Source of the DNA: Candidatus Nomurabacteria bacterium
Lineage (GTDB): Bacteria; Patescibacteriota; Minisyncoccia; Phycocordibacterales; UBA9973
Direction: 5' to 3'
Length of the DNA: 64,000 nt
NCBI GenBank assembly: GCA_023267275.1
Contig: JAHFNO010000005.1
Coordinates: 9,462 to 73,461, forward strand
Made by a program: the position numbers and the translations under genes. This document shows, one piece after another, positions 1 to 25,837 of the stretch (the stretch's first letter is position 1; each line of letters opens with the position of its first letter). The notes below the pieces were generated by a model that searched no databases, was not told the DNA's origin, and worked only from the letters and a program-made list of their open reading frames with translations.

Positions 1-258
1 TTTACAAACGCAATTGAAAAAATACTTATTGAAAAATTTAAAAATGAAACAATAAAGTATCTCGAGCGTTATCAAGCAAGTACAACTGCTAGTATTATAC
101 AAGAAAAATTAACAAGAATGCTTTCTTTTGGAATAAATGAAACAAATGCTCTACAATCAATTTCCGATCTGAAAGATAAATCTGGTAAATATATTAAAAA
201 TTTTTTAAAGAAAGCGGATTCTATTAAAAATATTGATATAATTAAGCGGGTAGAGTAA
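1..258 (+). CDS. 3' end of a Lys-rich hypothetical protein; gene starts upstream of the window
   Basis: Open frame from nt 1 to TAA at 256-258. Lys/Ile/Glu-rich translation typical of this genome's proteins. No recognisable domain. Confidence 0.4.
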   Translation, partial: FTNAIEKILIEKFKNETIKYLERYQASTTASIIQEKLTRMLSFGINETNALQSISDLKDKSGKYIKNFLKKADSIKNIDIIKRVE

Positions 259-559
259 CGCTGATTTCGTGTGAATGGAACTGACAAGGCTTGCCTACTT
301 TGTGTTCAATTGTTCTTGAGTTATTCTAGTTTAAATACTAGAGTGGTTTTACCTAAGTTTTAAACAGGACAGAATCACAATTTTAGAAATGATTTGTGCT
401 TAAGCGCTTGTAAAAATGGCACAGTATTTAGAATTAAAGTTAGTGAATAAGAATTTAAAGTAATATGCGGGTTCGATTCTTGGAGGGGTGCTCGATTTCG
501 AAAGGCCAAAAACCTTACAAAATATGAGACCTCCGCATCGACCTTGGTTGTGGTCACGA

Positions 560-700
560 ATCACTAAGTCTACTCGGGTTATTACACCCTGTGCGGACAA
601 AGTGTTCGCGACCCCACCTCGCCTGTCGCAGGGCGACATGGCTGTGGTCGGCACAAGTACAAAGAAAGACTGAAGCAGTTCAGTCTTTCTCGTCTTGTGC
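560..700. repeat. Structured element A plus nested hairpin, paralogous to element B at 845-980, next to tRNA-Arg
   Basis: About 75% identity to 845-935 with compensatory stem changes (cgggttattacaccc vs cggctgagtacagcc). Followed by the long nested palindrome ggcacaag...agactgaagcagttcagtct...cttgtgcc. Confidence 0.4.
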
Positions 701-769
701 CCTTGCTAGGAATCGAACCTAGAATAGCGGCTTAGAAGTCCGCAGTTATATCCATTTAACTACAAGGGC
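698..769 (-). tRNA. tRNA-Arg (anticodon TCT)
   Basis: Reverse complement folds as a cloverleaf: acceptor GCCCTTG/CAAGGGC, D-stem GTTA/TAAC, anticodon loop CTTCTAA (identical to E. coli argU), T-arm CTAGG-TTCGATT-CCTAG. CCA not encoded. One A:G mismatch at the base of the anticodon stem. Confidence 0.85.
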
Positions 770-844
770 AAAAAAATAAGGGGAACATGTGTAGCATACA
801 AAAATAGCTGGCGAAACGCCAGCTATTTTTGTATGGGCCACAAG

Positions 845-980
845 TCACTAAGTCTACTCGGCTGAGTACAGCCTGTGTGGACTAAGTGCTCTGCGACCCC
901 ACCTCGTGGTCGCAGAGCGACATCACTACGGTTCACAAAAACGAGGAAAACTGCATAAATGCAGTTTTCCTAAATTCACG
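845..980. repeat. Structured element B plus nested hairpin, paralog of A, next to tRNA-Val
   Basis: Shares cactaagtctactcgg...gcgaccccacctcg...gtcgcag.gcgacat with element A. Followed by cacaaaaacg-ggaaaactgcataaatgcagttttcc-cgtttttgtg; the T-run on the minus strand fits an intrinsic terminator for the minus-strand tRNA-Val. Confidence 0.4.
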
Positions 981-986
981 TTTTTG

Positions 987-1059
987 TGCGCGATGCAGGG
1001 CTCGAACCTGCGACCATCCGTGTGTAAAACGGGCGCTCTACCAACTGAGCTAATCGCGC
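987..1059 (-). tRNA. tRNA-Val (anticodon TAC)
   Basis: Reverse complement GCGCGATTAGCTCAGTTGGTAGAGCGCCCGTTTTACACACGGATGGTCGCAGGTTCGAGCCCTGCATCGCGCA. Acceptor GCGCGAT/ATCGCGC, D-arm GCTC..GAGC, anticodon loop TTTACAC, T-arm GCAGG-TTCGAGC-CCTGC. Confidence 0.85.
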
Positions 1060-1145
1060 GTTCATTATTTATACACTAATAGCCTTGCTATATCAAGTTA
1101 ATATTATACTGGTTAATATACCATATTATATGGTATATTCTACTT

Positions 1146-1817
1146 ATGAATTTGGCTGGAAAAGAAAAAGCAAGAATCTTGCGTAAACAGGGAAAGTCCA
1201 TTAATCAAATTGTCGCCGAGTCAGGGCTTTCAAAAGCAAGTGTAAGTGTTTGGGTTCGTGATATTGTTCTCACAAAATCACAAAAAAATAAAATTACTGA
1301 ACGAGGAAGGAGTATGGAATCCATTGAAAAAAGACGCTTAAGTCGTCTTGCAAACGAATATAAAAAAACTAGATCGGTGATGGATAGTGCGAAGAAAGAC
1401 ATTTCAAGCATTTCATTGCACGAGCTTAAAATTATCGGATCAATGCTGTACCTTGGTGAAGGAGGAAAAACAAGAAAAGGCATGGTTCGTTTGGCAAATA
1501 GCGACCCACTCATTATTCAAATGACAATGCGATTTTTTCGAGAAGTTTGTCTTGTCCCTGAAAATAAATTTTATGGACATATTCATACCTTTGATAATGC
1601 TGATGTTGAAAAAACTGAAAAGTATTGGTCAAAGATAACAAAAATTCCTCGAAAGCAATTTTATAAAACGTATGTAAAGCAAAGTACTGCGAGCTTGCAT
1701 AAGCGTAAAACATTGCCATACGGAACTTGCGAGATAGGTGTTTGTGACACAAAACTTTTCCTTACGATTATGGGCTGGATTGAAAAAATAAAAGAGTTAA
1801 CAACAAATGTTCAATAA
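1146..1817 (+). CDS. HTH DNA-binding protein, possibly homing-endonuclease-like (weak LAGLIDADG-like segment)
   Basis: N-terminal resolvase/Hin-type HTH (GKSINQIVAESGLSKASVSVWVRD). Internal IIGSMLYLGEGGK loosely resembles a LAGLIDADG motif. Lies beside the tRNA cluster; likely -10 tatggtatat upstream. Confidence 0.5.
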   Translation: MNLAGKEKARILRKQGKSINQIVAESGLSKASVSVWVRDIVLTKSQKNKITERGRSMESIEKRRLSRLANEYKKTRSVMDSAKKDISSISLHELKIIGSMLYLGEGGKTRKGMVRLANSDPLIIQMTMRFFREVCLVPENKFYGHIHTFDNADVEKTEKYWSKITKIPRKQFYKTYVKQSTASLHKRKTLPYGTCEIGVCDTKLFLTIMGWIEKIKELTTNVQ

Positions 1818-4057: not shown

Positions 4058-4143
4058 TACAAAACAAAATCCCTCGCTCGAGGGATTTTGTTTTGAGAAT
4101 AATTGGTAGACGCTATACCCTAGAGGTATGGTATAATCTACAC

Positions 4144-4818
4144 ATGGGGAAGAGAGGACCAAAGCCAAAACGAATTATAAGCGAGAAATGGAATGCCAAT
4201 TTGGCGTATGCAATTGGTTTAATTGCCACAGATGGTTGCTTGTCAAAGGATAATCTCTTGATTGATTTAACCTCCAAAGATAGAGAGCAGTTATTAAATT
4301 TTTCCCAATGCCTTGGAATAAAATTTACGATAGGCAGTAAGTTGAATGGTCATGGAGGTAAAAATTTAAGAATTCAATTTAAAAACAGAATTTTTTACGA
4401 TTTTCTTTTGTCTATTGGTTTAACTCCAAAAAAATCACTAACTATGGGCAAATTGGCAATACCAAAAAAATACTTTTTTGATTTTTTGAGAGGATGTTTT
4501 GATGGGGATGGTAGTTTCTACTCATATTGGGATCCACGTTGGCGTTCCAGTCACATGTTTTACATAGAGTTTGTCTCTGCGAGTTTAGATCATTTGTTGT
4601 GGCTTCAAGAAGAAATACAAAAAGAAGTTGAAGTTAAGGGGCATATCACTGGGAGAAAAAAGAAAGCATTTTTTCAGTTAAAATACGCAAAGAAAGAAGC
4701 ACTGGCAATTATTAAAAAAATGTACTATAATCGTCGAGTCATTTGCCTTTCTCGAAAGAAGATAAAAATTGAGAAAGCGCTTGTGGTAGAGAAGAAGCAA
4801 CAGAAAAAGTATATATAG
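4144..4818 (+). CDS. LAGLIDADG homing endonuclease, two motifs
   Basis: LAYAIGLIATDGCLS and FLRGCFDGDGSF are canonical LAGLIDADG motifs 1 and 2. A tatggtataat -10 precedes the ATG at 4144. Sits directly upstream of tRNA-Leu. Confidence 0.85.
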   Translation: MGKRGPKPKRIISEKWNANLAYAIGLIATDGCLSKDNLLIDLTSKDREQLLNFSQCLGIKFTIGSKLNGHGGKNLRIQFKNRIFYDFLLSIGLTPKKSLTMGKLAIPKKYFFDFLRGCFDGDGSFYSYWDPRWRSSHMFYIEFVSASLDHLLWLQEEIQKEVEVKGHITGRKKKAFFQLKYAKKEALAIIKKMYYNRRVICLSRKKIKIEKALVVEKKQQKKYI

Positions 4819-4900
4819 GCGCGAGTGGCGTAATTGGTAAACGCGCCATCTTGAGGTGGTGGTGCCGCAAGGCGTGGAGGTTCAAGTCCTCTCTCGCGCA
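4819..4900 (+). tRNA. tRNA-Leu (anticodon GAG), class II with long variable arm
   Basis: GCGCGAG/CTCGCGC acceptor, D-stem GCGT/ACGC, anticodon arm CCATC-TTGAGGT-GGTGG, variable arm TGCCGCAAGGCGT, T-arm GGAGG-TTCAAGT-CCTCT. CCA not encoded. Confidence 0.9.
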
Positions 4901-4912
4901 CAAAAAACAAAT

Positions 4913-4946
4913 GAGGCGAACCCATGTGGTTCGCCGATTTTGTTTT
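4913..4946 (+). terminator. Intrinsic terminator after tRNA-Leu
   Basis: aggcgaacc-catgtgg-ttcgcc followed by gattttgtttt. Confidence 0.6.
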
Positions 4947-5184
4947 GTAGTGAGGGAGAGGGCTTGAAAGTCGCAGGTGCGAAGCCGGTCTGAAAGACCG
5001 TTACCGAGGCGGGGTCGAGAAATTTTGATTGTAATCAAGCAGAATATTCGTGATCAAGTTCTCTCTCACAGACAGAAAAAGACCCTTACATTGTAAAGGT
5101 ATTTTTCTATATAACTTTTAGGTTTGAATCTGTTGTGTTTCTTGCAGACTCATTCTTATGAGTATTTTTGCCTAGACAACAAGA

Positions 5185-6051
5185 TTGTGCATACTGTATA
5201 CTTTTTTCATGAGCCTAGAATGGTCTAAAAGTCCCGCCCGAAATGAGGCCGTTGATATCCAAAAGCAAGCCAAGAAAACCAGAGAAGAAATTTATTACGA
5301 CAATGAGCAAGTCCGGAGCGAATCTTTTATTGAAAATCACGATGATAGTGATAATTTTGAATGGCAGAAGGATGGAGATATCTCAAGGGATCAAACGGAG
5401 CGTTTTGTAACAAATGCTGAAAACATAACAGAAAAATCAATTATTGAAAAAGCCCTCCAAGCCTTGATCAAACAGAAAGAGGAACGTCAACGCATTATAG
5501 AAAAATACCCAGAAGCGTATAAGGAATTTCCTCATTATCATACTATTTCTTCGGAAATCTCAAGATTAAGTAATGCGATTAACGCTTTACAAAGAGAAAG
5601 AAGCGAGGTTACAGCTATCGAGAAAGTGCTTAATGGTAAAGAATCATGGTGGGTTGATGACTCAACAGAAAAATATGTTAAAGAAAAATTTCATGAAAAT
5701 GAGCTTTGGCAAGTCGCATTAAAGAAGGCTCGTAGTAGAGACGAGTGGATCGAGCGTATTTCCTCTGGTCGTATTAGTGGAGTATTTGAGAAAATTCTAA
5801 TGAAGGTCGTAGCAAAACAAATCTTGAAACCAAGATACGATGAGTTAGTTGAAAAAATGGAAGATTACAATGAGAAAATAATTACTTTAGAAGAAGAAAA
5901 GAAAAAATATTTAGTACGAATGAAAGCCCTAGAAGACTTTCTGTATAGTTCGGAATGGGGTGAGTTCTCTAAATTGGAGGATCTTGAGAAAGAAATAAAC
6001 AAGAATATAAGAATTGTTAAAACAATTTCCCAGCGCCATACCTTTAATTAA
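5185..6051 (+). CDS. Hypothetical coiled-coil protein, upstream partner of the PARP-like gene
   Basis: Charged, heptad-rich sequence with no recognisable domain. 23-bp gap to the next gene on the same strand. Start may be the internal Met at MSLEWSK. Confidence 0.55.
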   Translation: MCILYTFFMSLEWSKSPARNEAVDIQKQAKKTREEIYYDNEQVRSESFIENHDDSDNFEWQKDGDISRDQTERFVTNAENITEKSIIEKALQALIKQKEERQRIIEKYPEAYKEFPHYHTISSEISRLSNAINALQRERSEVTAIEKVLNGKESWWVDDSTEKYVKEKFHENELWQVALKKARSRDEWIERISSGRISGVFEKILMKVVAKQILKPRYDELVEKMEDYNEKIITLEEEKKKYLVRMKALEDFLYSSEWGEFSKLEDLEKEINKNIRIVKTISQRHTFN

Positions 6052-6074
6052 TAGATAAGTATTATACTGACTTT

Positions 6075-6665
6075 ATGAGTACTGAGGGATTCCCAACATT
6101 TTCTGCGATGCCATCCTCTTCCGAGGAAGAGTCCAATTTTCTTGAAAAGAATATGGCAAGTTTGCAAAAGATTTTTGATATCAATCCTGAGCTTGCTGAA
6201 ATTGGTTCCTTGGATCAATATGCTGCCTATGTCGAGAAAATTTTTCCGAATAGTTTAGTAAAAAATATTGTTTGGCATGGAAGCAAGAAACATTTCAATG
6301 AATTCAAAAGAAAGATATTTAATTTTTTTGGATTAAAACTAAGTCATGGTTTATATTTTGGTGAAAAATATGAACACTCAGAAGTTTTTGCTGGAGAGAA
6401 AGGGAAACTTTTCCCTGCAAAAATTAGTATCGAAAGACCCAATAAGCCAATTATGAAAGTTACAGGTATACCTTTCAATACAAATAAAGGAAATGGTTAT
6501 ATTGGTAAAGATTTTATTGATCGAAATGTAGGGCTTGTTGATGAATATGTGGTATTTGACCCATATCAAATACATATACTTGGCGATAGTAAAGATGCTA
6601 GGGCCTTTAAAGAGTGGACTCTCGGTAATAAAGAGAAATCGTCCTTATTTGAATCCCCTCAGTGA
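6075..6665 (+). CDS. Minimal PARP-like (H-Y-E class) ADP-ribosyltransferase catalytic domain
   Basis: IVWHGSKKHF (PARP1 LLWHGSR), SHGLYFGE (PARP1 GKGIYFAD), VDEYVVFDPYQI (PARP1 YNEYIVYDIAQV, catalytic Glu). Confidence 0.6.
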   Translation: MSTEGFPTFSAMPSSSEEESNFLEKNMASLQKIFDINPELAEIGSLDQYAAYVEKIFPNSLVKNIVWHGSKKHFNEFKRKIFNFFGLKLSHGLYFGEKYEHSEVFAGEKGKLFPAKISIERPNKPIMKVTGIPFNTNKGNGYIGKDFIDRNVGLVDEYVVFDPYQIHILGDSKDARAFKEWTLGNKEKSSLFESPQ

Positions 6666-6717
6666 TTACTGAAAGATTTTTTTCTCTATTCCCATCCAAA
6701 AATACGCAAGGTATACT

Positions 6718-7158
6718 ATGTGTATGAAAAGAACAATCATAACAATTATTGTGCTCGCGGTTACTGTGTTTGTGATGTATCGTGTTTTTTTAAATACTAA
6801 AAATAATGCAACGCCAATTGCGCCGGTTGTTCCTGTATCGCAAACCGAGCAAGCAACAACAGTTCCCGCACAAACTCCTTCGGTAAAAACAGTACAGATT
6901 GAAATAAAAAATTTTGCATTTGCTCCAAAGTCACAAACTATTCAAGTTGGCACTACGGTAACGTGGGTCAATCGCGATAGCGCTCCGCATACGATCGTGT
7001 CTGACACTGGCAACGTTTTGCATTCACCAATGATTGCAAGCGGGGAAACATTTAGTCATACATTTACCGCTACCGACCTTGCAAGCAGTTCAACCACTCT
7101 CAACTATCACTGCAGTATTCATCCAATGATGAAAGGAACTTTGAATTTGATTCAGTAG
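6718..7158 (+). CDS. Membrane-anchored cupredoxin (plastocyanin/amicyanin-like blue copper protein)
   Basis: N-terminal TM helix; type-1 Cu ligands present: His in SAPHT and C-x2-H-x2-M in [11 protein letters not shown]. Confidence 0.75.
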
Positions 7159-7168
7159 TAATTACACT

Positions 7169-7525
7169 ATGAACGAACTCACTCCAGAAGAAAAGCGAGT
7201 CATTATCGACAAGGGAACAGAAGCTCCGTTTACCGGAGAGTATGTAAACAACAAGGCAACAGGCGTATATGTGTGTCGCCAGTGTGGTGCGCCGTTGTAT
7301 AATTCAAAAGACAAATTTGAATCCAATTGTGGCTGGCCAAGTTTTGATGATGAAATTCCTGGAGCGATTCATAAAAGTCTCGATGCAGATGGTATGCGAA
7401 CAGAAATTACTTGCGCAAAATGCGGAGCACACCTCGGTCATGTATTTGTTGGTGAACATTTTACCGATAAAAATATTCGTCACTGTGTGAATTCTATTTC
7501 AATGCGGTTTGTTCCAGGAAAATAA
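7169..7525 (+). CDS. msrB: Peptide-methionine (R)-S-oxide reductase MsrB
   Basis: [43 protein letters not shown]: full MsrB/SelR signature including the Zn-binding CxxC pairs. Confidence 0.9.
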
Positions 7526-7537
7526 GTATTTTGACAA

Positions 7538-7559
7538 GTATACCCCCGAGGGGGTATAC
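7538..7559. promoter_or_regulatory. CsoR-type operator palindrome overlapping a sigma70-like promoter
   Basis: Perfect palindrome GTATACCCCC-GA-GGGGGTATAC, matching the GC-rich TACCC..GGGTA CsoR operator architecture. Sits between TTGACA (7531-7536) and a TATACT -10, just upstream of csoR. Confidence 0.6.
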
Positions 7560-7567
7560 TTTTTTAT

Positions 7568-7831
7568 ATGCATACCGACAAAACAAAACTCATTCGTCGA
7601 CTCAAGATCATTGAAGGGCAAGTGCGTGGACTCCAAGAGCTCATCGAAAAAGATACCTATTGTATTGATGTTATTACGCAAACCTCGGCAATCAAGCAAG
7701 GACTTTCAAACGTTGAAGATCTATTGCTCGAAGGACACCTTGGACATTGTTTGGTAAATCAAATCAAAAAAGGGCAGACGGAGAAGGCTACAAAAGAAAT
7801 TTTAAAAGTCTATGGTCTAAAAAGGAAGTAG
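7568..7831 (+). CDS. csoR: CsoR/RcnR-family copper-sensing repressor
   Basis: RLKIIEGQVRGLQELIEKDTYCIDVITQ...LLLEGHLGHC carries the conserved Cys/His/Cys metal ligands of CsoR. Upstream of copA. Confidence 0.85.
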   Translation: MHTDKTKLIRRLKIIEGQVRGLQELIEKDTYCIDVITQTSAIKQGLSNVEDLLLEGHLGHCLVNQIKKGQTEKATKEILKVYGLKRK

Positions 7832-7864
7832 AAAGCTCAAAGCCTAAAGCTGAAAGTAAAATTT

Positions 7865-10159
7865 ATGCAAAATACAAATACATTTAAAGTTCGCGGGATG
7901 CATTGTGCCTCATGTGCTGCGACTATTGAAAAAACATTTAAAAAAACTGACGGTGTTTCTTTGGCAGAGGCAAATTATGGCACCGAGTCCGTCAAAGTAG
8001 ATTTTGATGCATCAAAAACTTCTCCCGAAGCACTGTCTCAAAAAATCCAACCATTCGGATATGAGCTCATTATTCCAACCGCAGAAGAAATGCATATGTC
8101 GCAGAGTGAGCACGCGACGCATCTGGGACTCAATCAATCAAAGACAGAAAAATTGCAGGAACTTACCAGTTTGAAAATAAAAGTACTCACCGCTATTCCA
8201 CTCGCGATTGTGAGTCTCGTTTTCATGACTTGGGACATTCTCGCAGGATATGTACTCGTTCCCCAAATGAGTACAATGGTAAAAGAAATTTTTCAAATTC
8301 TTCTTCCGCTTTTTGCTACATACATGCTGTTCTACGTAGGGAAGCCATATCTTCTGGGCTTGTACCGATTTTTCCGCTATGGCAATGCAAACATGGATAC
8401 ACTGGTCGGGCTTGGTACTGGAGTGGCGTTTGTATATAGTCTCGCAACCATTTTCTTTCGCAGTGCGCTCGCTCGATACATAAATGTGGATGCAACATAT
8501 TTTGACATCACGATCATCGTCATTACATTTATTACGCTCGGAAAATATCTTGAGACTCGTTCAAAATTGAAAACTGGCGATGCAATTGAAAAACTCCTCA
8601 ACCTTTCTGCGAAGACAGCACTTGTTGCGCGTGATGGTACAGAAATGGAAATTCCAACGAGTGAGGTTGTGGTCGGCGATGTGCTTGTAGTAAAGCCGTC
8701 GGGAAAAATTCCTGTAGATGGCGTGCTTGTCGACGGTCATTCGTATGTTGATGAATCGATGATTACTGGCGAGCCAATGCCTCGCGAAAAAAATACGGGA
8801 GATTCTGTTGTTGCTGGCACAATAAATACGAGTGGTACATTTACGTTTCGCGCAACAAAAGTTGGGTCCGAAACAATGCTCGCACATATCATCAAGATGG
8901 TGGAAGATGCGCAGGGGAGCCGTGCTCCTATTCAGGCACTTGCCGACAAAATTTCTGCAGTGTTTGTGCCCGTCGTACTTGTGCTCGCGTTCCTTACGCT
9001 TGGATTGTGGATTGCTATTGGCACATCGCATCTTGGTTTTTCAAAAGCACTCGCCGATGGACTCACTTCATTTGTCGGTATTCTCGTGATTGCTTGTCCG
9101 TGTGCACTCGGTCTTGCAACACCGACGGCTATCATCGTTGGCGTCGGCAAAGGTGCAAAGGAGGGTATTCTCATCAAAGATGCGGCAACGCTGGAAAAAT
9201 TGCACACGGTGAATGTGGTTGTCTTGGACAAGACTGGTACGGTGACTCATGGCAAACCAGAACTGAGTACACTCAATAATGTTTCGAGCGAGAGTGATGA
9301 AAGAATTATACAATTGCTTGCCACACTCGAATCTCGATCGGAGCATCCGATTGCACGAGCGATTCTTACGCATGCGAAGGAAAAAAATATTTCGGTTCTC
9401 TCAATGAACAATTTTGATGCATTGAAAGGGAAAGGGGTGGGTGCTGAAATTGATGGTGTGCATTATTTTGCCGGCAGTGCTCGACTCGTCGAAGAATTCA
9501 ATATCAATTTTGATACACACTCGTTTGCCTCTCAATTGAGTGAAGGTAAGACACCGGTATTTCTTACAACAAAATCTGCAGTTCTTGCTGTAGTGTTTGT
9601 CTCTGATGCCATAAAGTCTGGAGTACAAGATGCAGTTACGCAATTACACAAGCTTGGTATTCGCGTCGTAATGCTTACCGGCGACACACAAAAAACTGCC
9701 GAATATATTGCACGCTCTGCCGGAATCGATGAGGTTGTGGCCGAAGTTTTGCCGGAAGACAAACTCGCAACGATTGTTGATTTGCAGAAAAAAGGCAATA
9801 CAGTGGCGATGGTAGGAGATGGCGTCAACGATGCACCGGCGCTCGCGCAAGCTGATGTGGGTATTGCGATGGCGACGGGTACTGATGTTGCTATCGAAAG
9901 TGCCGGCATTACTTTGCTTCACGGAGATATTTCAAAACTCGTAAAAGCTATTCGGCTTTCAAAACTCACGATGCGTGGCATCAAACAAAATTTGTTTTGG
10001 GCGTTTGTATATAATATAGTTGGCATTCCACTCGCAGCCGGATTGTTCTATCCGTTGTTTGGTTGGTTGCTCTCTCCGATATTTGCTGGACTTGCGATGG
10101 GACTCTCTAGTGTTTCCGTTGTCGGGAATTCACTGCGATTAAAAACTAAGAAACTCTAA
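7865..10159 (+). CDS. copA: Copper-translocating P1B-type ATPase
   Basis: N-terminal [36 protein letters not shown], eight predicted TM segments. Confidence 0.95.
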
Positions 10160-10220
10160 GGGAACACTTACGTCGATGTAATTCGACGCAAGGGAACACT
10201 TATGCAAAGCTAAAAATTGT

Positions 10221-10844
10221 ATGGAACAGAAAAAAACACAAAAAACATTTTTACTTGTCGTTGTTTGTATCATCGTCGTAGTACTCGTTGTGTTTCTTGG
10301 AAAAACGAATAGCACACCACAAGCTCCGGTATCAGAAAATACAACACTCGGTATACAGGTGACGGCAGCGCCATGGATTGCGGAAATAGCGCATTTGAAA
10401 GAGCGACTCGCGTCTATTGGATTGCCAGCTCTTCCGGAAGAGGGAACTACGCTCCATATACATCAACATCTCGATATTTTTGTGCACGGAAAACCAGTTG
10501 CCGTATCGCCTGGAATTGGAATCAATGAGCAAGATCGTTTTATTGCACCGATTCATACACACGATGCATCAAATGTTATTCACGTTGAATCACCAACAGT
10601 ACAAGATTTTACTCTCGGACAGTTCTTCGACATTTGGGGTGTGCAATTTACAGCGAATGCGATTGGCGGATATACGAGTGATGCAACAAATACGCTCACT
10701 GTGTTTGTAAATGGAAAAGAATTTGCTGGTGACCCAAGAACACTTATTCTTGCTCCGCACCAAGAAATTGTCGTGACATTTGGAACAAAAGCTGAAATTC
10801 CAAATCCTGTGCCATCGTCGTATACATTTTCAGATGGAGAATAA
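10221..10844 (+). CDS. Membrane-anchored His-rich hypothetical protein within the copper cluster
   Basis: Signal-anchor helix, then HIHQHLDIFVHG...IHTHDASNVIHVESP histidine clusters. No known domain. Confidence 0.5.
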   Translation: MEQKKTQKTFLLVVVCIIVVVLVVFLGKTNSTPQAPVSENTTLGIQVTAAPWIAEIAHLKERLASIGLPALPEEGTTLHIHQHLDIFVHGKPVAVSPGIGINEQDRFIAPIHTHDASNVIHVESPTVQDFTLGQFFDIWGVQFTANAIGGYTSDATNTLTVFVNGKEFAGDPRTLILAPHQEIVVTFGTKAEIPNPVPSSYTFSDGE

Positions 10845-10853
10845 TATATTTAT

Positions 10854-11882
10854 ATGAACACACAAAAAACATATACATTTCATGTGCACGGCATGCATTG
10901 CAACTCATGTGTACTCCTTACGGAGAGTGAACTCGCCGAGCTTCCATACATCACGAGTGCAAAGAGTAGTTTACAGAATCGCACGGTTGTTGTTGAAGGA
11001 GACTTTGGTGAGCAAACTGCCGAAGAAATCGCACAAACACTCACGAATGTATTGCAGCCACACGGATATACACTTTCGATTGAAGCAGAACAAAAAGAAA
11101 AAAATCTTTCTGAATTTATGGTCGCAGTTCCGATCGCGATTGGTTTTGCCGCACTCTTTTTGTTGCTCCAAAAATCAGGTATTGTGCACCTGAGTGGATT
11201 TGGAGAGGTGACGTACGGCACGGCATTTGTCATTGGTATCATCGCTTCGCTTTCTTCGTGTATGGCAGTGGTGGGAGGACTCGTACTTTCAATGTCGGCA
11301 ACATTCGCAAAAGAAAGTAGTACTGCTCGTCCACAGATTCTTTTCCATATTGGACGAATCGTTTCGTTTTTTGTACTTGGTGGAGTCGTTGGTCTTTTGG
11401 GAAAAGCATTTGCACTCTCGGCAACAGTGACATTTATACTTGGGCTCATTGTTGGTTTGGTAATGCTTATTCTCGGAATCAATTTGCTCGATGTTTTTCA
11501 TTGGTCAAAACGTTTGCAACCAGGGATGCCAAAAATTCTTTCCAAGCATGCGTTTAACGTTTCAAAAATAAATGGAGCTGTGACACCACTCCTTGTTGGG
11601 GTCGCCACCTTTTTCCTGCCATGTGGATTTACACAATCGATGCAAATTTACACACTTTCAACGGGAAGTTTTTTGAAAGGAGGACTTACCATGCTTGCAT
11701 TCGCACTAGGTACATTTCCTGTGCTCGCCGCACTTTCATTTGGTTCATCGAATATTGCAAAAAGTGCAAAGTCGGGCATATTTTTTAAATCCGCAGGACT
11801 CGTTGTGATTCTTTTTGCAGTATTTAATATTATCAATGCACTAGCAGTGGCAGGAATTATTCCACCAGTATTTAATTTTTAA
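10854..11882 (+). CDS. HMA-domain fused to a DsbD/CcdA/TauE-like transmembrane domain
   Basis: N-terminal GMHCNSC heavy-metal-associated motif; polytopic membrane domain with paired cysteines (SSCMAV, FLPCGF). Confidence 0.65.
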   Translation: MNTQKTYTFHVHGMHCNSCVLLTESELAELPYITSAKSSLQNRTVVVEGDFGEQTAEEIAQTLTNVLQPHGYTLSIEAEQKEKNLSEFMVAVPIAIGFAALFLLLQKSGIVHLSGFGEVTYGTAFVIGIIASLSSCMAVVGGLVLSMSATFAKESSTARPQILFHIGRIVSFFVLGGVVGLLGKAFALSATVTFILGLIVGLVMLILGINLLDVFHWSKRLQPGMPKILSKHAFNVSKINGAVTPLLVGVATFFLPCGFTQSMQIYTLSTGSFLKGGLTMLAFALGTFPVLAALSFGSSNIAKSAKSGIFFKSAGLVVILFAVFNIINALAVAGIIPPVFNF

Positions 11883-11900
11883 TATACGCTACACAAATGG

Positions 11901-11990
11901 CTCATTTCTTCGTTGCCTCACTCGTTTGTTCCCGCGGAGTAGGATTACTACACCTTAGTCACAAGCCTCATTCGCGCCTCGAACTGCATC
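11901..11990 (+). repeat. Copy 1 of a ~90-nt dispersed intergenic element
   Basis: Core ...ctcgtttgttcccgcggagtaggattactacaccttagtcacaagcctcattcgcgcctcgaactgcat, embedded between the 18-bp inverted repeat atatacgctacacaaatgg / ccatttgtgtagcgtata. Copies also at 34412-34503 (inverted) and 42075-42170. Confidence 0.65.
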
Positions 11991-12016
11991 CATTTGTGTA
12001 GCGTATAATAACTTTT

Positions 12017-12406
12017 ATGAAAAAATCAGTATTCATTATTATTTGTAGTCTCGCCGGGATACTCGTACTGTCACTCTTTTTTGTTTCGCCGAAAAAAGTA
12101 CCGGAGATGAGTGTCGATGGTTCAAATGTGTATATGGAAAATGGCGTTCAGATTGTGGCAATTAAAGCTGGTGGGGGATATTCTCCGCAAGTGAGTGTGG
12201 CGAAGGCAGGTATTCCGACAAAAATCCGGTTTGCCACGAGTGGTTCATTTGATTGTTCTTCGTCGGTTCGGATTCCAAGTCTTCATATCTCTCAAATTCT
12301 TCCTCAAAAAGGGAAAGCTGATATCGATATTGGTACACCAAGTGCCGGACCACTCCAGGGAATGTGTGGAATGGGAATGTATCCGTTTAGTGTCACGTTT
12401 CAGTAA
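12017..12406 (+). CDS. Secreted Cys/Met-rich protein, possible copper-binding
   Basis: Signal peptide; C-terminal GMCGMGMY and FDCSSS. Next to the copper genes. No confident domain assignment. Confidence 0.4.
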   Translation: MKKSVFIIICSLAGILVLSLFFVSPKKVPEMSVDGSNVYMENGVQIVAIKAGGGYSPQVSVAKAGIPTKIRFATSGSFDCSSSVRIPSLHISQILPQKGKADIDIGTPSAGPLQGMCGMGMYPFSVTFQ

Positions 12407-25064: not shown

Positions 25065-25240
25065 AAAAAAATAGTTTGTGATTGGGGAAGTGAGGTTTGA
25101 ATCCTCCACAGTGCCGCTACGGTGATACCAAGACTCTCTTGGGAAGTCCGAATGCCAATCATAAATAGTGTGTCCCGAGCAGGAAATGTAGCGCGTGTTA
25201 AGCGCTCGTCTCTACAAAGTCCCTCGGAAGGGATTTTTTT
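25065..25240 (+). ncRNA. Cobalamin riboswitch with intrinsic-terminator expression platform
   Basis: tGGGGAAGTGAGGTTTGAATCCTCC...ACGGTGATAC...GGGAAGTCCGAATGCCAATC parallels the T. tengcongensis AdoCbl aptamer (GUGGGAAAGUGACGUGAAAUUCGUCC...ACGGUUAUACUCCGAAUGCCACC). Ends in the tccct-cgga-aggga hairpin plus T7 at 25220-25240, ~80 bp upstream of the DUF4430 gene. Confidence 0.75.
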
Positions 25241-25321: not shown

Positions 25322-25837
25322 ATGCATAAAAAATACACAATTTTCTCAGTTATTATTTTTGTTGCGATTCTCGCAGGCTTTTTTGCTATGACAAAAAAGC
25401 CTGCGCAAACACCAGCAGTTACTCCATCTACTCCTCCTGTATCTGTTGTACAAAATATCGGAGCGACAAAAAAAGAAACTCCCGCAACGCCTCCTTCAAC
25501 ACAAATCACAGAGAAAGATTCTGTTGCGAAGCCAACTCTTTCAGTAAGTCCTGACACCACTACAATCAAGCTTATTGTTGGAGACGCAACAACATCTCTT
25601 TCGGCTCCAACAAACAGCTCTTTGTATCAGATGCTCAAGATTGCTCAAATGCAAGGACAAATTACATTTTCTGGAAAACAATATTCAGGACTTGGATTTT
25701 TTGTGACTGCAATCGGTGGTTTGCAAAGCGGGGGAGGAAAGAATTTGTTGTATTACATTAATGGCAAAGAGGCGTCGGTCGGCGTGTCTACCTATATTCC
25801 GCAAAACGGCGACGTTGTGGAGTGGAAATTAGAATAA
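25322..25837 (+). CDS. DUF4430 (transcobalamin-like beta-domain) lipoprotein/surface protein, putative cobalamin binder
   Basis: Signal-anchor then YQMLKIAQ...GLGFFVTAIGGL...LLYYINGKEASVGVSTYIPQNGDVVEWKL matches the DUF4430 pattern. Directly downstream of the cobalamin riboswitch. Confidence 0.6.
   Translation: MHKKYTIFSVIIFVAILAGFFAMTKKPAQTPAVTPSTPPVSVVQNIGATKKETPATPPSTQITEKDSVAKPTLSVSPDTTTIKLIVGDATTSLSAPTNSSLYQMLKIAQMQGQITFSGKQYSGLGFFVTAIGGLQSGGGKNLLYYINGKEASVGVSTYIPQNGDVVEWKLE

Follow-up and report, generated by a model that had tools for sequence, protein, structure and literature searches.

A family of covarying elements without open reading frames at tRNA 3' ends of Patescibacteria: candidate insertion cassettes

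A 64,000-nucleotide stretch from Candidatus Nomurabacteria bacterium (assembly GCA_023267275.1, contig JAHFNO010000005.1, positions 9,462 to 73,461; hereafter the window, numbered from its first letter) carries three copies, A, B, and C, of a structured element located 3' of tRNA genes. These copies belong to a family, here named T1, that may represent a new and undescribed kind of insertion cassette, free of open reading frames (ORFs) and aimed at tRNA 3' ends; we favor this assignment tentatively and give it somewhat less than an even chance. Each unit is arranged in the order of the tRNA 3' end (T), a hairpin (x), a segment T' antisense to the tRNA end, the T1 core, and a second copy of T as a direct repeat (DR2). 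In the following, we describe the fold of the core and its strand, the linkage to tRNA genes, the relations of T' and the repeat to the tRNA end, the polymorphisms in presence and order among relatives, and a paralogue located at a GGGCAC sequence away from any tRNA.

Copies A and B lie on the minus strand. The tRNA-Val(tac) gene (986–1059; identified by ARAGORN and by the Rfam tRNA model with 68.6 bits) is followed by hairpin H_B (934–988; −26.6 kcal/mol, z −7.3, folded as 934–990), the base of which is the terminal CAC of the tRNA (988–986), and then by the core of copy B (822–947; 82.2 bits and E 8.5e-24 with the covariance model R1 described below). Likewise, the tRNA-Arg(tct) gene (697–769; ARAGORN, and 63 bits in Rfam) is followed by hairpin H_A (650–701; −30.9 kcal/mol, z −7.0, folded as 650–703), which stands on the last nucleotides GGCAC of the tRNA (701–697), and by the core of copy A (538–663; 98.5 bits, E 5e-29). 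ARAGORN, Rfam, and folding thus confirmed the order of tRNA, long palindrome, and ~100-nt element, repeated twice, that a sequence-only reading of the stretch had described. That reading took palindrome and element to be separate features, whereas they form one unit, in which the hairpin pairs the tRNA 3' end with T' in front of the core and each palindrome takes in the last 5–6 nt of its own tRNA. In H_B, CACAAAAACG (the tRNA-Val end and trailer) is paired with T'_B, CGTTTTTGTG (943–934), around an inner hairpin of 12 bp that resembles a minus-strand terminator. In H_A, GGCACAAG (the tRNA-Arg end and trailer) is paired with T'_A, CTTGTGCC (657–650), and the tip is a CUGC tetraloop. Copy B proper (~836–932, within element 836–934) is a three-way junction of P1, P2–P3, and P4 with a GTGGC end at 841–837, followed by the short direct repeat CATACAAAAAT (835–825), a copy of the tRNA-end/trailer sequence ACAAAAA, and by a terminator-like hairpin, CATACAAAAATAGCTGGCG/CGCCAGCTATTTTTGTATG (795–835, minus strand), which is probably the original tRNA-Val terminator pushed away by cassette B. 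Copy A ends in GTGAC (557–553), followed by the short direct repeat CACAAC (552–547). Elements A (552–650) and B (836–934) are 82–83% identical, rather than ~75% as estimated before, and their minus-strand folds have z values of −6.2 and −3.4, respectively, against shuffled sequence.

The motifs shared by A and B are well above chance in the window (0.05–0.10 expected), and a search of the window for their common motif revealed copy C on the plus strand, which the sequence-only reading had missed, together with the tie between the elements and the tRNA 3'-end sequence. Copy C (4950–5069, or 4955–5069 in a narrower delimitation; 36.5 bits, E 4e-9; fold z −4.4) is a diverged copy 3' of tRNA-Leu(gag) (4819–4901, plus strand; ARAGORN and Rfam), from which it is separated by a terminator-like nested palindrome (4902–4948, plus strand) with a homologue in the hairpin after tRNA-Leu of L061, a locus described below. 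The layout of A and B is kept in C: T', GTGAGGGAGAGGGCTTGAA (4950–4968), is antisense to the T loop, T stem, and acceptor of tRNA-Leu, the core contains CGAGGCGGGGTCG at 5005–5017 and ends in GTGAT at 5050–5054, and the direct repeat CAAGTTCTCTCTCAC (5055–5069) copies the tRNA-Leu 3' end, both T' and the repeat matching the tRNA-Leu end TTCAAGTCCTCTCTCGCGCAC. R1 finds exactly three copies in the window, so that three of its four tRNA genes carry T1; no copy is associated with the fourth, tRNA-His. T1 units are 150–250 nt long, with no ORF inside.

A pattern covering A, B, and C was scanned against one genome per species, and matched genomes of Saccharibacteria, Paceibacteria, Parcubacteria, Kaiser-, Adler-, Yonath-, and Nomurabacteria, and other Patescibacteria (CPR), in addition to easily recognized chance sites in high-GC coding DNA. 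With the covariance model R1, built from 32 copies and used at a cut-off of E<1e-4, 58 copies were found (36 genome loci and the window). A second set of metagenome contigs, retrieved solely by a tRNA-Arg(tct) probe unrelated to T1, yielded ~50 further copies by R1, bringing the family to more than 100 copies in Patescibacteria genomes and metagenomes. These copies are matched to at least 15 tRNA types, and the sequence of the core is kept across distant Patescibacteria classes. In searches against Rfam 15, which includes tRNA, tmRNA, hammerhead, twister, pistol, hatchet, HDV-like, HEARO/omega RNA, and T-box families, nothing was found over the elements at gathering thresholds or, for positions 1–1400, at E<=10, only the two tRNAs; weak sub-threshold matches sit on the terminator hairpin at 772–892, off the fold of the element. 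ARAGORN called no tmRNA in the window, and no account of T1 emerged when the literature was searched by text and by sequence string, in agreement with the earlier statement that the elements match no known RNA class. Phage and plasmid collections gave no T1 match, and all seven matches in viral contigs were rejected as chance sites in high-GC coding DNA. ORF clustering over the 36 loci found no recurrent partner protein beside the copies, only synteny around particular tRNAs; the window copies lie next to LAGLIDADG-like, pseudouridine synthase, and L19 genes. A look-up of the L19 protein for strain variants returned the same strain only, and led to the fourth copy, A', described below.

The T1 core is a three-way junction of ~80–140 nt, and the unit including the hairpin amounts to 150–250 nt. 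P1 is formed by T' paired with the sequence 3' of the core and is followed by a joiner of 2–3 nt. P2 (GCC/GGC) is followed by a 3-nt bulge (GGA, GCA, or ACA), past which a G-C pair, a freely covarying two-pair extension, and AU lead to P3 (GUCGC-NNN-GCGAC), in place of which some copies have other long hairpins. A, CGA, and GG lie 3' of P3, and P4 (GGUCG.../...(Y)GUGAC(C)) has a distal part of variable length. In the first set of 58 copies, 91.6% of the cells are standard pairs, compared with 25–41% when the 3' partners are slid by 1–3 columns; both sides change in 22 of the 25 pairs, and none of 500 shuffles reaches the observed values. The metagenome copies, which were not used to build R1 but were aligned to it, gave 92.3% versus 26–42%, again with changes on both sides of 22 of the 25 pairs. 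Since both alignments were fitted to R1, the absolute percentages lean to the model, whereas the slid controls and the double changes remain decisive. During this analysis, the initial P2 register CCG/CGG was replaced by GCC/GGC, column 17 (A) covarying with column 51 (U), as read by eye and then confirmed on both sets. A kissing contact between the CUGC loop and a GSAG bulge is not supported, the majority combination CUGC/GGAG having a central mismatch. Also rejected were kink-turn, hammerhead, and HDV-like topologies, whose helix order and conserved bases do not fit the alignment when reasoned through on it. The claim of selection on a base-paired fold rather than a decaying duplicate, for which the two original copies were insufficient, is borne out by the ~100 homologues. 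As for the two pairs of variants given in its support, cgggttattacaccc versus cggctgagtacagcc is indeed compensatory and falls in a stem of the distal hairpin of P4, while gtcgc-aggg-cgac versus gtcgc-aga-gcgac affects no more than the loop of P3 (GTCGC-NNN-GCGAC).

Counted over the tRNA-sense strand, G·U pairs exceed A·C mismatches (110 versus 23, with about half of the A·C cases probably arising from a known register ambiguity in the P3 extension), and one P4 G·U pair is present in 56 of the 58 copies. The folding strand is therefore the tRNA-sense strand. The strand data are the same for RNA and single-stranded DNA; hence, of the earlier proposal of an RNA structure, folding as a single strand stands, and the choice of RNA goes beyond these data. 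The distal hairpins of P4 (e.g., 561–606 and 845–890 of the window, minus strand) contain a 9-bp helix, CACUUAGUC/GACUUAGUG, which recurs across distant lineages and with different tRNAs and keeps a U·U mismatch at its center. By eye, hairpin tips are very often GAA or other C-G-closed triloops, which are unusual in RNA and favorable in DNA.

A tRNA gene (a tmRNA gene in locus L094) is found on the same strand within 250 nt upstream of 49 of the 58 copies, and the orientation of T1 is always that of the tRNA. Most of the other nine copies are at the edge of the retrieved stretch or after a tRNA-Asp not called by ARAGORN. A group I intron in tRNA-Asp has been described for this phylum (PMC13011429), and the uncalled tRNA-Asp genes probably carry an intron of that kind. 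The segment T', just 5' of the core, is antisense to the 3' part of the upstream tRNA. In class 1, the antisense stretch spans the T loop, the T stem's 3' strand, and frequently also the acceptor strand, and it tracks tRNA-specific variants (for example TTCGAAT, TTCGAGT, TTCAAGT, and, in a tRNA-Cys, the unusual TGCGATT); in class 2, to which A and B belong, it spans the final 5–6 nt of the tRNA and the first bases of the trailer. Pairing of T with T' forms the long hairpin H, previously noted as a nested palindrome, around an inner hairpin that is usually tipped with CUGC (in 51 of the 106 upstream stretches, the next commonest tetraloop occurring in 11). In class 1 copies no terminator lies between the tRNA and the core. 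DR2 lies just 3' of GUGAC and directly repeats the tRNA 3' end, and the unit boundaries read ...GUGAC/C(GAUU... or AC...), with the slash marking the junction. The class 1 DR2 begins at C56 of the T loop and extends over 13 nt or more in 19 of 46 copies, reaching perfect identity over 45–56 nt, trailer and terminator included, in L092, L094, and L118; these perfect repeats point to recent events. The class 2 DR2 has 5–8 nt (CAC and A-rich bases). The longest duplex of T' with the real tRNA end exceeds that with DR2 in 38 cases, matches it in 16, and falls short of it in 7, and where DR2 is decayed or interrupted (L048, L079, L039, and A and B of the window), T' still fits the tRNA. Two simpler origins were rejected: self-primed fold-back synthesis of DR2, as the 45-nt repeat of L092 is direct and not inverted, and insertion of the core within a T loop, as the 5' strand is antisense to the T loop and is not the 5' strand of the T stem.

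Presence and order of T1 vary among related loci. Of 109 usable tRNA-Arg(tct) loci from diverse Patescibacteria, 25 (23%) have T1 within 300 nt downstream, mostly 32–39 nt from the tRNA end; the 84 loci without it include some that run directly into the next gene or tRNA. After identical tRNA-Lys(ttt) genes of three genomes, the orders T1-T3-T1b, T3-T1, and T2-T1-T3 are found, in which T3 is a diverged T1 and T2 has a different core with the same layout of hairpin, T', and repeat. The closest relative in hand, the Saccharibacteria locus L061, is syntenic with the window and has an orthologue of A with 85% identity and no copy C after tRNA-Leu; a precise insertion of C relative to L061 was considered and, with a match of only 9 nt, is not used as evidence. 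In the metagenome locus L219, tRNA-Arg(tct) is directly followed by a conserved element, E5 (GCAC/ATTCAAGGTCGA...), whereas in the window cassette A lies between tRNA-Arg and an E5 88% identical to that of L219 (...GUGAC CAC AAC CAAGGTCGA...). A fourth copy, A' (92 bits), is present in the window's own genome, 2 kb left of the window start (locus L126, 224–349, minus strand; window position 1 is L126 position 2352). At this site, which has no tRNA, lies a ~94% identical repeat of the 236-nt unit GGGCAC-x-T'-T1-CAC-E5, and the flank ends in GGGCAC, the sequence paired by T'. A' adjoins a 314-aa ORF with the Recombinase and zinc-ribbon domains of large serine recombinases and without their catalytic domain, a remnant that we regard only as a lead and that may be there by coincidence.

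E5 is a conserved hairpin element of ~80 nt directly after A (470–546, minus strand; fold z −2.2), duplicated together with A in L126 (about 100–235, minus strand). Its 3' strand, AAGAATCGAACC, is antisense to a T arm and corresponds to the T-loop-like fragment at 461–500 that had been proposed as a relic of an integration site, and its 5' strand resembles the sense 3' part of a tRNA. The fragment is thus real, although it belongs to E5 and is not a free relic; what holds of the integration-site proposal is that direct repeats of the tRNA 3' end flank the units. E5 looks like another cassette type built on the same design principle. Other small cores with the tRNA-end layout were seen in L101 (~1750–1940), in L104 (minus strand, after tRNA-Lys), and in L133, L152, L189, L190, and L237. 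The type 2 core, ...GAAACCUGUAC-hairpin-GUAAGRAAAG/AUUCC, is accompanied by a CUGC hairpin, T', and a repeat of the tRNA end as in T1. The tRNA-end cassettes may thus form a superfamily to which T1 belongs. L236 has five tandem copies of the 13-nt sequence GAACTAATCGGTG directly after tRNA-Arg(tct), and no cassette.

These relations could be brought together if the unit is a mobile, non-autonomous cassette. We infer an excised intermediate, an enzyme with its chemistry, and an active molecule of either single-stranded DNA or RNA. A small circle [x-T'-core-T] would recombine with the chromosome inside T, the point of recombination or strand transfer being the T loop in class 1 and the terminal CAC in class 2, as in A and B. 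Such an event would restore the tRNA 3' end from the cassette's own T and leave the displaced original as DR2. Because the tRNA-side T would be the cassette's own, T' would match the tRNA end best, and because the downstream T would be the displaced original, DR2 would be the copy to decay. Read as a circle, H, P2–P3, and P4 would close into one three-way junction, with the break point where the 3' end of P4 meets the 5' strand of H. The single-strand fold, with T' on the target copy, would be the form recognized by a trans-acting enzyme, and in this pairing resembles the folded integron attC and the attP of phage CTX. A bolder version, which we consider doubtful, is that T1, T2, T3, and E5 are a protein-less mobile nucleic acid carrying its own guide, in which T' would pick the site, the junction would be catalytic or enzyme-recruiting, and the mobile form would be a single-stranded circle.

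Several points weigh against mobility of the cassette. It is deduced solely from comparisons between genomes, in which replication slippage, by losing palindromic DNA, could also be a source of 'empty' sites, and one mechanism must cover both the 5–8-nt repeats of class 2 and the 13–56-nt repeats of class 1. The weakest point is that, with at least 15 tRNA types, both T and T' need to be retargeted, and the proposal offers no templating mechanism for this. In addition, the conserved G·U, the U·U mismatches, and the phylum-wide conservation are typical of functional RNAs, class 1 copies are probably co-transcribed with the tRNA, as no terminator precedes their core, the occupancy of three of four window tRNA genes could equally fit a host function, and the copy beside the recombinase remnant may be a coincidence.

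T1 lacks at least one defining feature of each of the known systems closest to it, integron attC sites and CTX attP, IS200/IS605 elements, and tRNA-targeting islands. As in integron cassettes, small units are arrayed at a fixed entry site, their order differs between relatives, and a boundary sequence is repeated at each junction; gene-less integron cassettes also exist. Like attC, T1 folds from one strand, and an internal segment pairs with the crossover or target copy (T' with T or DR2), imitating a double-stranded target. Unlike in integrons, the entry site is the 3' end of a tRNA or tmRNA gene instead of attI, and there is no cargo gene. The integron core boxes GTTRRRY/RYYYAAC are absent at T1 boundaries, and no integron integrase gene or attI was found beside the arrays, nor any recurrent neighbor family in the 36 loci. 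Also unlike attC, the target copy of T1 changes with the tRNA and is not a fixed, protein-recognized box, and the core is a three-way junction.

The most substantial competitor, possible although we hold it to be rather unlikely, is a host-function RNA derived from the 3' external spacer of the tRNA transcript, co-transcribed and released by processing. The 20–25-bp H would then be a processing stem, the T'/DR2 helix of class 1 an acceptor/T-arm minihelix serving as an RNase P/Z-type signal, and the released molecule a stable protein-binding or regulatory RNA, with the tRNA-end repeats existing for pairing. A precedent is 3'ETS-leuZ of E. coli, a small RNA from the 3' external transcribed spacer of a tRNA operon; like such RNAs, T1 is located directly 3' of the tRNA on the same strand and, judging from its position, is probably co-transcribed and processed out. 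Class 1 T'/DR2 also recalls tRNA-like structures in that it reproduces the acceptor/T-stem stack, with extra structure in place of the T loop. Strong covariation, the nearly invariant G·U, the 4–5:1 ratio of G·U to A·C on the transcribed strand, the constant orientation, the absence of a terminator between tRNA and element in class 1, the terminator-like hairpins 3' of B and C, the retention of the core across distant classes, and the three occupied tRNA genes of the window all accord with this proposal. It leaves the perfect 45–56-nt repeats with trailer and terminator (L092, L094, L118) unexplained by selection for pairing, and does not account for an occupancy of only 23% at tRNA-Arg(tct), the shuffled order at identical tRNA-Lys genes, the recent copy at a non-tRNA site, or a DR2 that is often decayed or interrupted while T' still fits the tRNA. 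Moreover, in class 2 (A and B) the hairpin before the core is terminator-like, and P1 has only 5–8 bp, giving no minihelix. T1 further departs from 3'ETS RNAs in its covarying fold, its association with many tRNAs throughout a phylum, its sense and antisense copies of the tRNA end, and its insertion-like polymorphism, and from tRNA and tmRNA in having no cloverleaf, T loop, CCA, reading frame, or model match, class 2 lacking even the mimicry. The host-RNA and mobile readings can be compatible, if a mobile element has its transcript as the active form.

Among mobile elements, non-autonomous relatives of IS200/IS605 would be single-stranded-DNA transposon derivatives, in which an HUH transposase encoded elsewhere recognizes H, and T' at the hairpin foot guides to the cleavage or target site, the CAC of the tRNA end and its neighbors. 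T1 shares with IS200/IS605 and palindrome-associated miniatures the strand-specific fold, a hairpin (here CUGC-looped) near the end with a guide-like segment at its foot, complementary to the left flank and the right end of the element, and insertion directly 3' of a short target: class 2 units lie exactly 3' of ...CAC, the element itself ends in ...GAC-CAC, and the paralogue occupies another GGGCAC site. Non-autonomous copies outnumber autonomous ones in IS200/IS605 too, and the C-G-closed triloops seen by eye, often GAA, would be favorable in DNA. We nevertheless judge this origin improbable: no HUH transposase occurs among the recurrent neighbors, as seen in 8-kb slices and one 64-kb window rather than whole genomes, phage and plasmid collections are devoid of matches, the guide has 8–24 nt instead of 4–5 nt, peel-and-paste transposition makes no duplications like those of 13–56 nt in class 1, and the three-way-junction core has no counterpart there. 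The units could also be scars of classical integrase-bearing islands or prophages at the tRNA T loop, T1 being the attachment-site-proximal DNA left after deletion of the interior. Integration into tRNA and tmRNA genes reportedly falls into site classes, a T-loop class included, as Williams is said to have set out in 2002, and class 1 (C included) resembles that class in repeating the sequence from the T loop to the tRNA 3' end, sometimes beyond, with the tRNA left intact and tmRNA also used (L094); the truncated serine-recombinase remnant beside A' would fit as well. Such scars are very unlikely to account for T1, however, with more than 100 independent copies of 150–250 nt and no integrase or other gene between the repeats, a T' antisense to the target, a structured core with strand-specific compensatory changes that are not expected of double-stranded protein-binding DNA, arrays in shuffled order, and class 2 units that use only the terminal CAC and a few bases (5–8-nt repeats). 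Equally little weight is given to a catalytic or viroid-like RNA, in which the junction would be a small self-cleaving or self-ligating RNA, possibly circular, with its DNA copies fixed at tRNAs. The permuted unit would make a compact, fully paired, branched molecule of 150–250 nt, and the ability of T' to pair with either the tRNA end or DR2 matches a strand exchange in topology; against this, no ribozyme family matches at E<=10, the strands of the junction are short and partly variable, no reverse transcriptase was seen near the copies, and the phylum reportedly lacks group II introns (PMC13011429). A known RNA in disguise (permuted tmRNA pieces or tRNA-like pseudogenes) or a neutral segmental duplication can practically be set aside, since covariation in ~100 copies rules out neutral decay. 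The 5' region of T1 is superficially like the 5' region of tmRNA (GGAUUCGA...GGAGCAUG...). This likeness was dismissed because its GGAAUCGAA stretch is antisense to the T loop of the neighboring tRNA and varies with the tRNA, and neither ARAGORN nor Rfam makes a call.

The surroundings of the window copies contain several further features. A LAGLIDADG-type ORF (4093–4818, plus strand; LAGLIDADG_3, E 8e-8) ends one base before tRNA-Leu and is absent from the syntenic L061. LAGLIDADG genes were rejected as partners of the cassettes: in L045 and L095, such ORFs lie just upstream of the cassette and a visible 3' end of a tRNA-Asp that ARAGORN did not call, and are probably inside a group I intron of the kind described for tRNA-Asp (PMC13011429). 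Divergent from tRNA-Val, a 223-aa ORF (1146–1817, plus strand) has a weak N-terminal resolvase-type helix-turn-helix, and just upstream of it (1101–1143) there are a perfect 12-bp palindrome, AATATACCATAT/ATATGGTATATT, and a 21-nt direct repeat. Past copy C, a block at ~5185–12400 (plus strand) encodes an unknown ORF, an ART-PolyVal-like protein, cupredoxins, MsrB, a copper P-type ATPase, and a DsbD-like protein. Because L061 lacks the first ~2.5 kb of it (to about window position 7540), the block is suggested to be an island at tRNA-Leu. An AdoCbl-II (cobalamin) riboswitch aptamer (25075–25165, plus strand; 37.0 bits for an Rfam gathering threshold of 36.5) precedes an ORF starting at 25322. 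Of the 61 ORFs of at least 110 aa, 53 are on the plus strand; tRNA-Val, tRNA-Arg, B, and A are on the minus strand, against the prevailing direction.

The genomes of Patescibacteria are among the smallest and least understood of any bacteria, and a large share of their tRNA genes is accompanied by a covarying element undescribed in databases. Should T1 prove to be a mobile cassette, no smaller tRNA-targeting element would be known; its choice of target would apparently reside in a base-pairing segment and not in a protein, and T1 would be of interest for mobile-DNA biology and for programmable insertion. As a self-guided mobile nucleic acid, it would constitute a nucleic-acid-guided, retargetable integration system specific to these tiny genomes. 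If it is instead a host RNA, it would reveal an unknown step in the handling of tRNA transcripts in this phylum. On either reading, T1 is a concrete and testable object, with more than 100 aligned copies and a defined fold and junctions.

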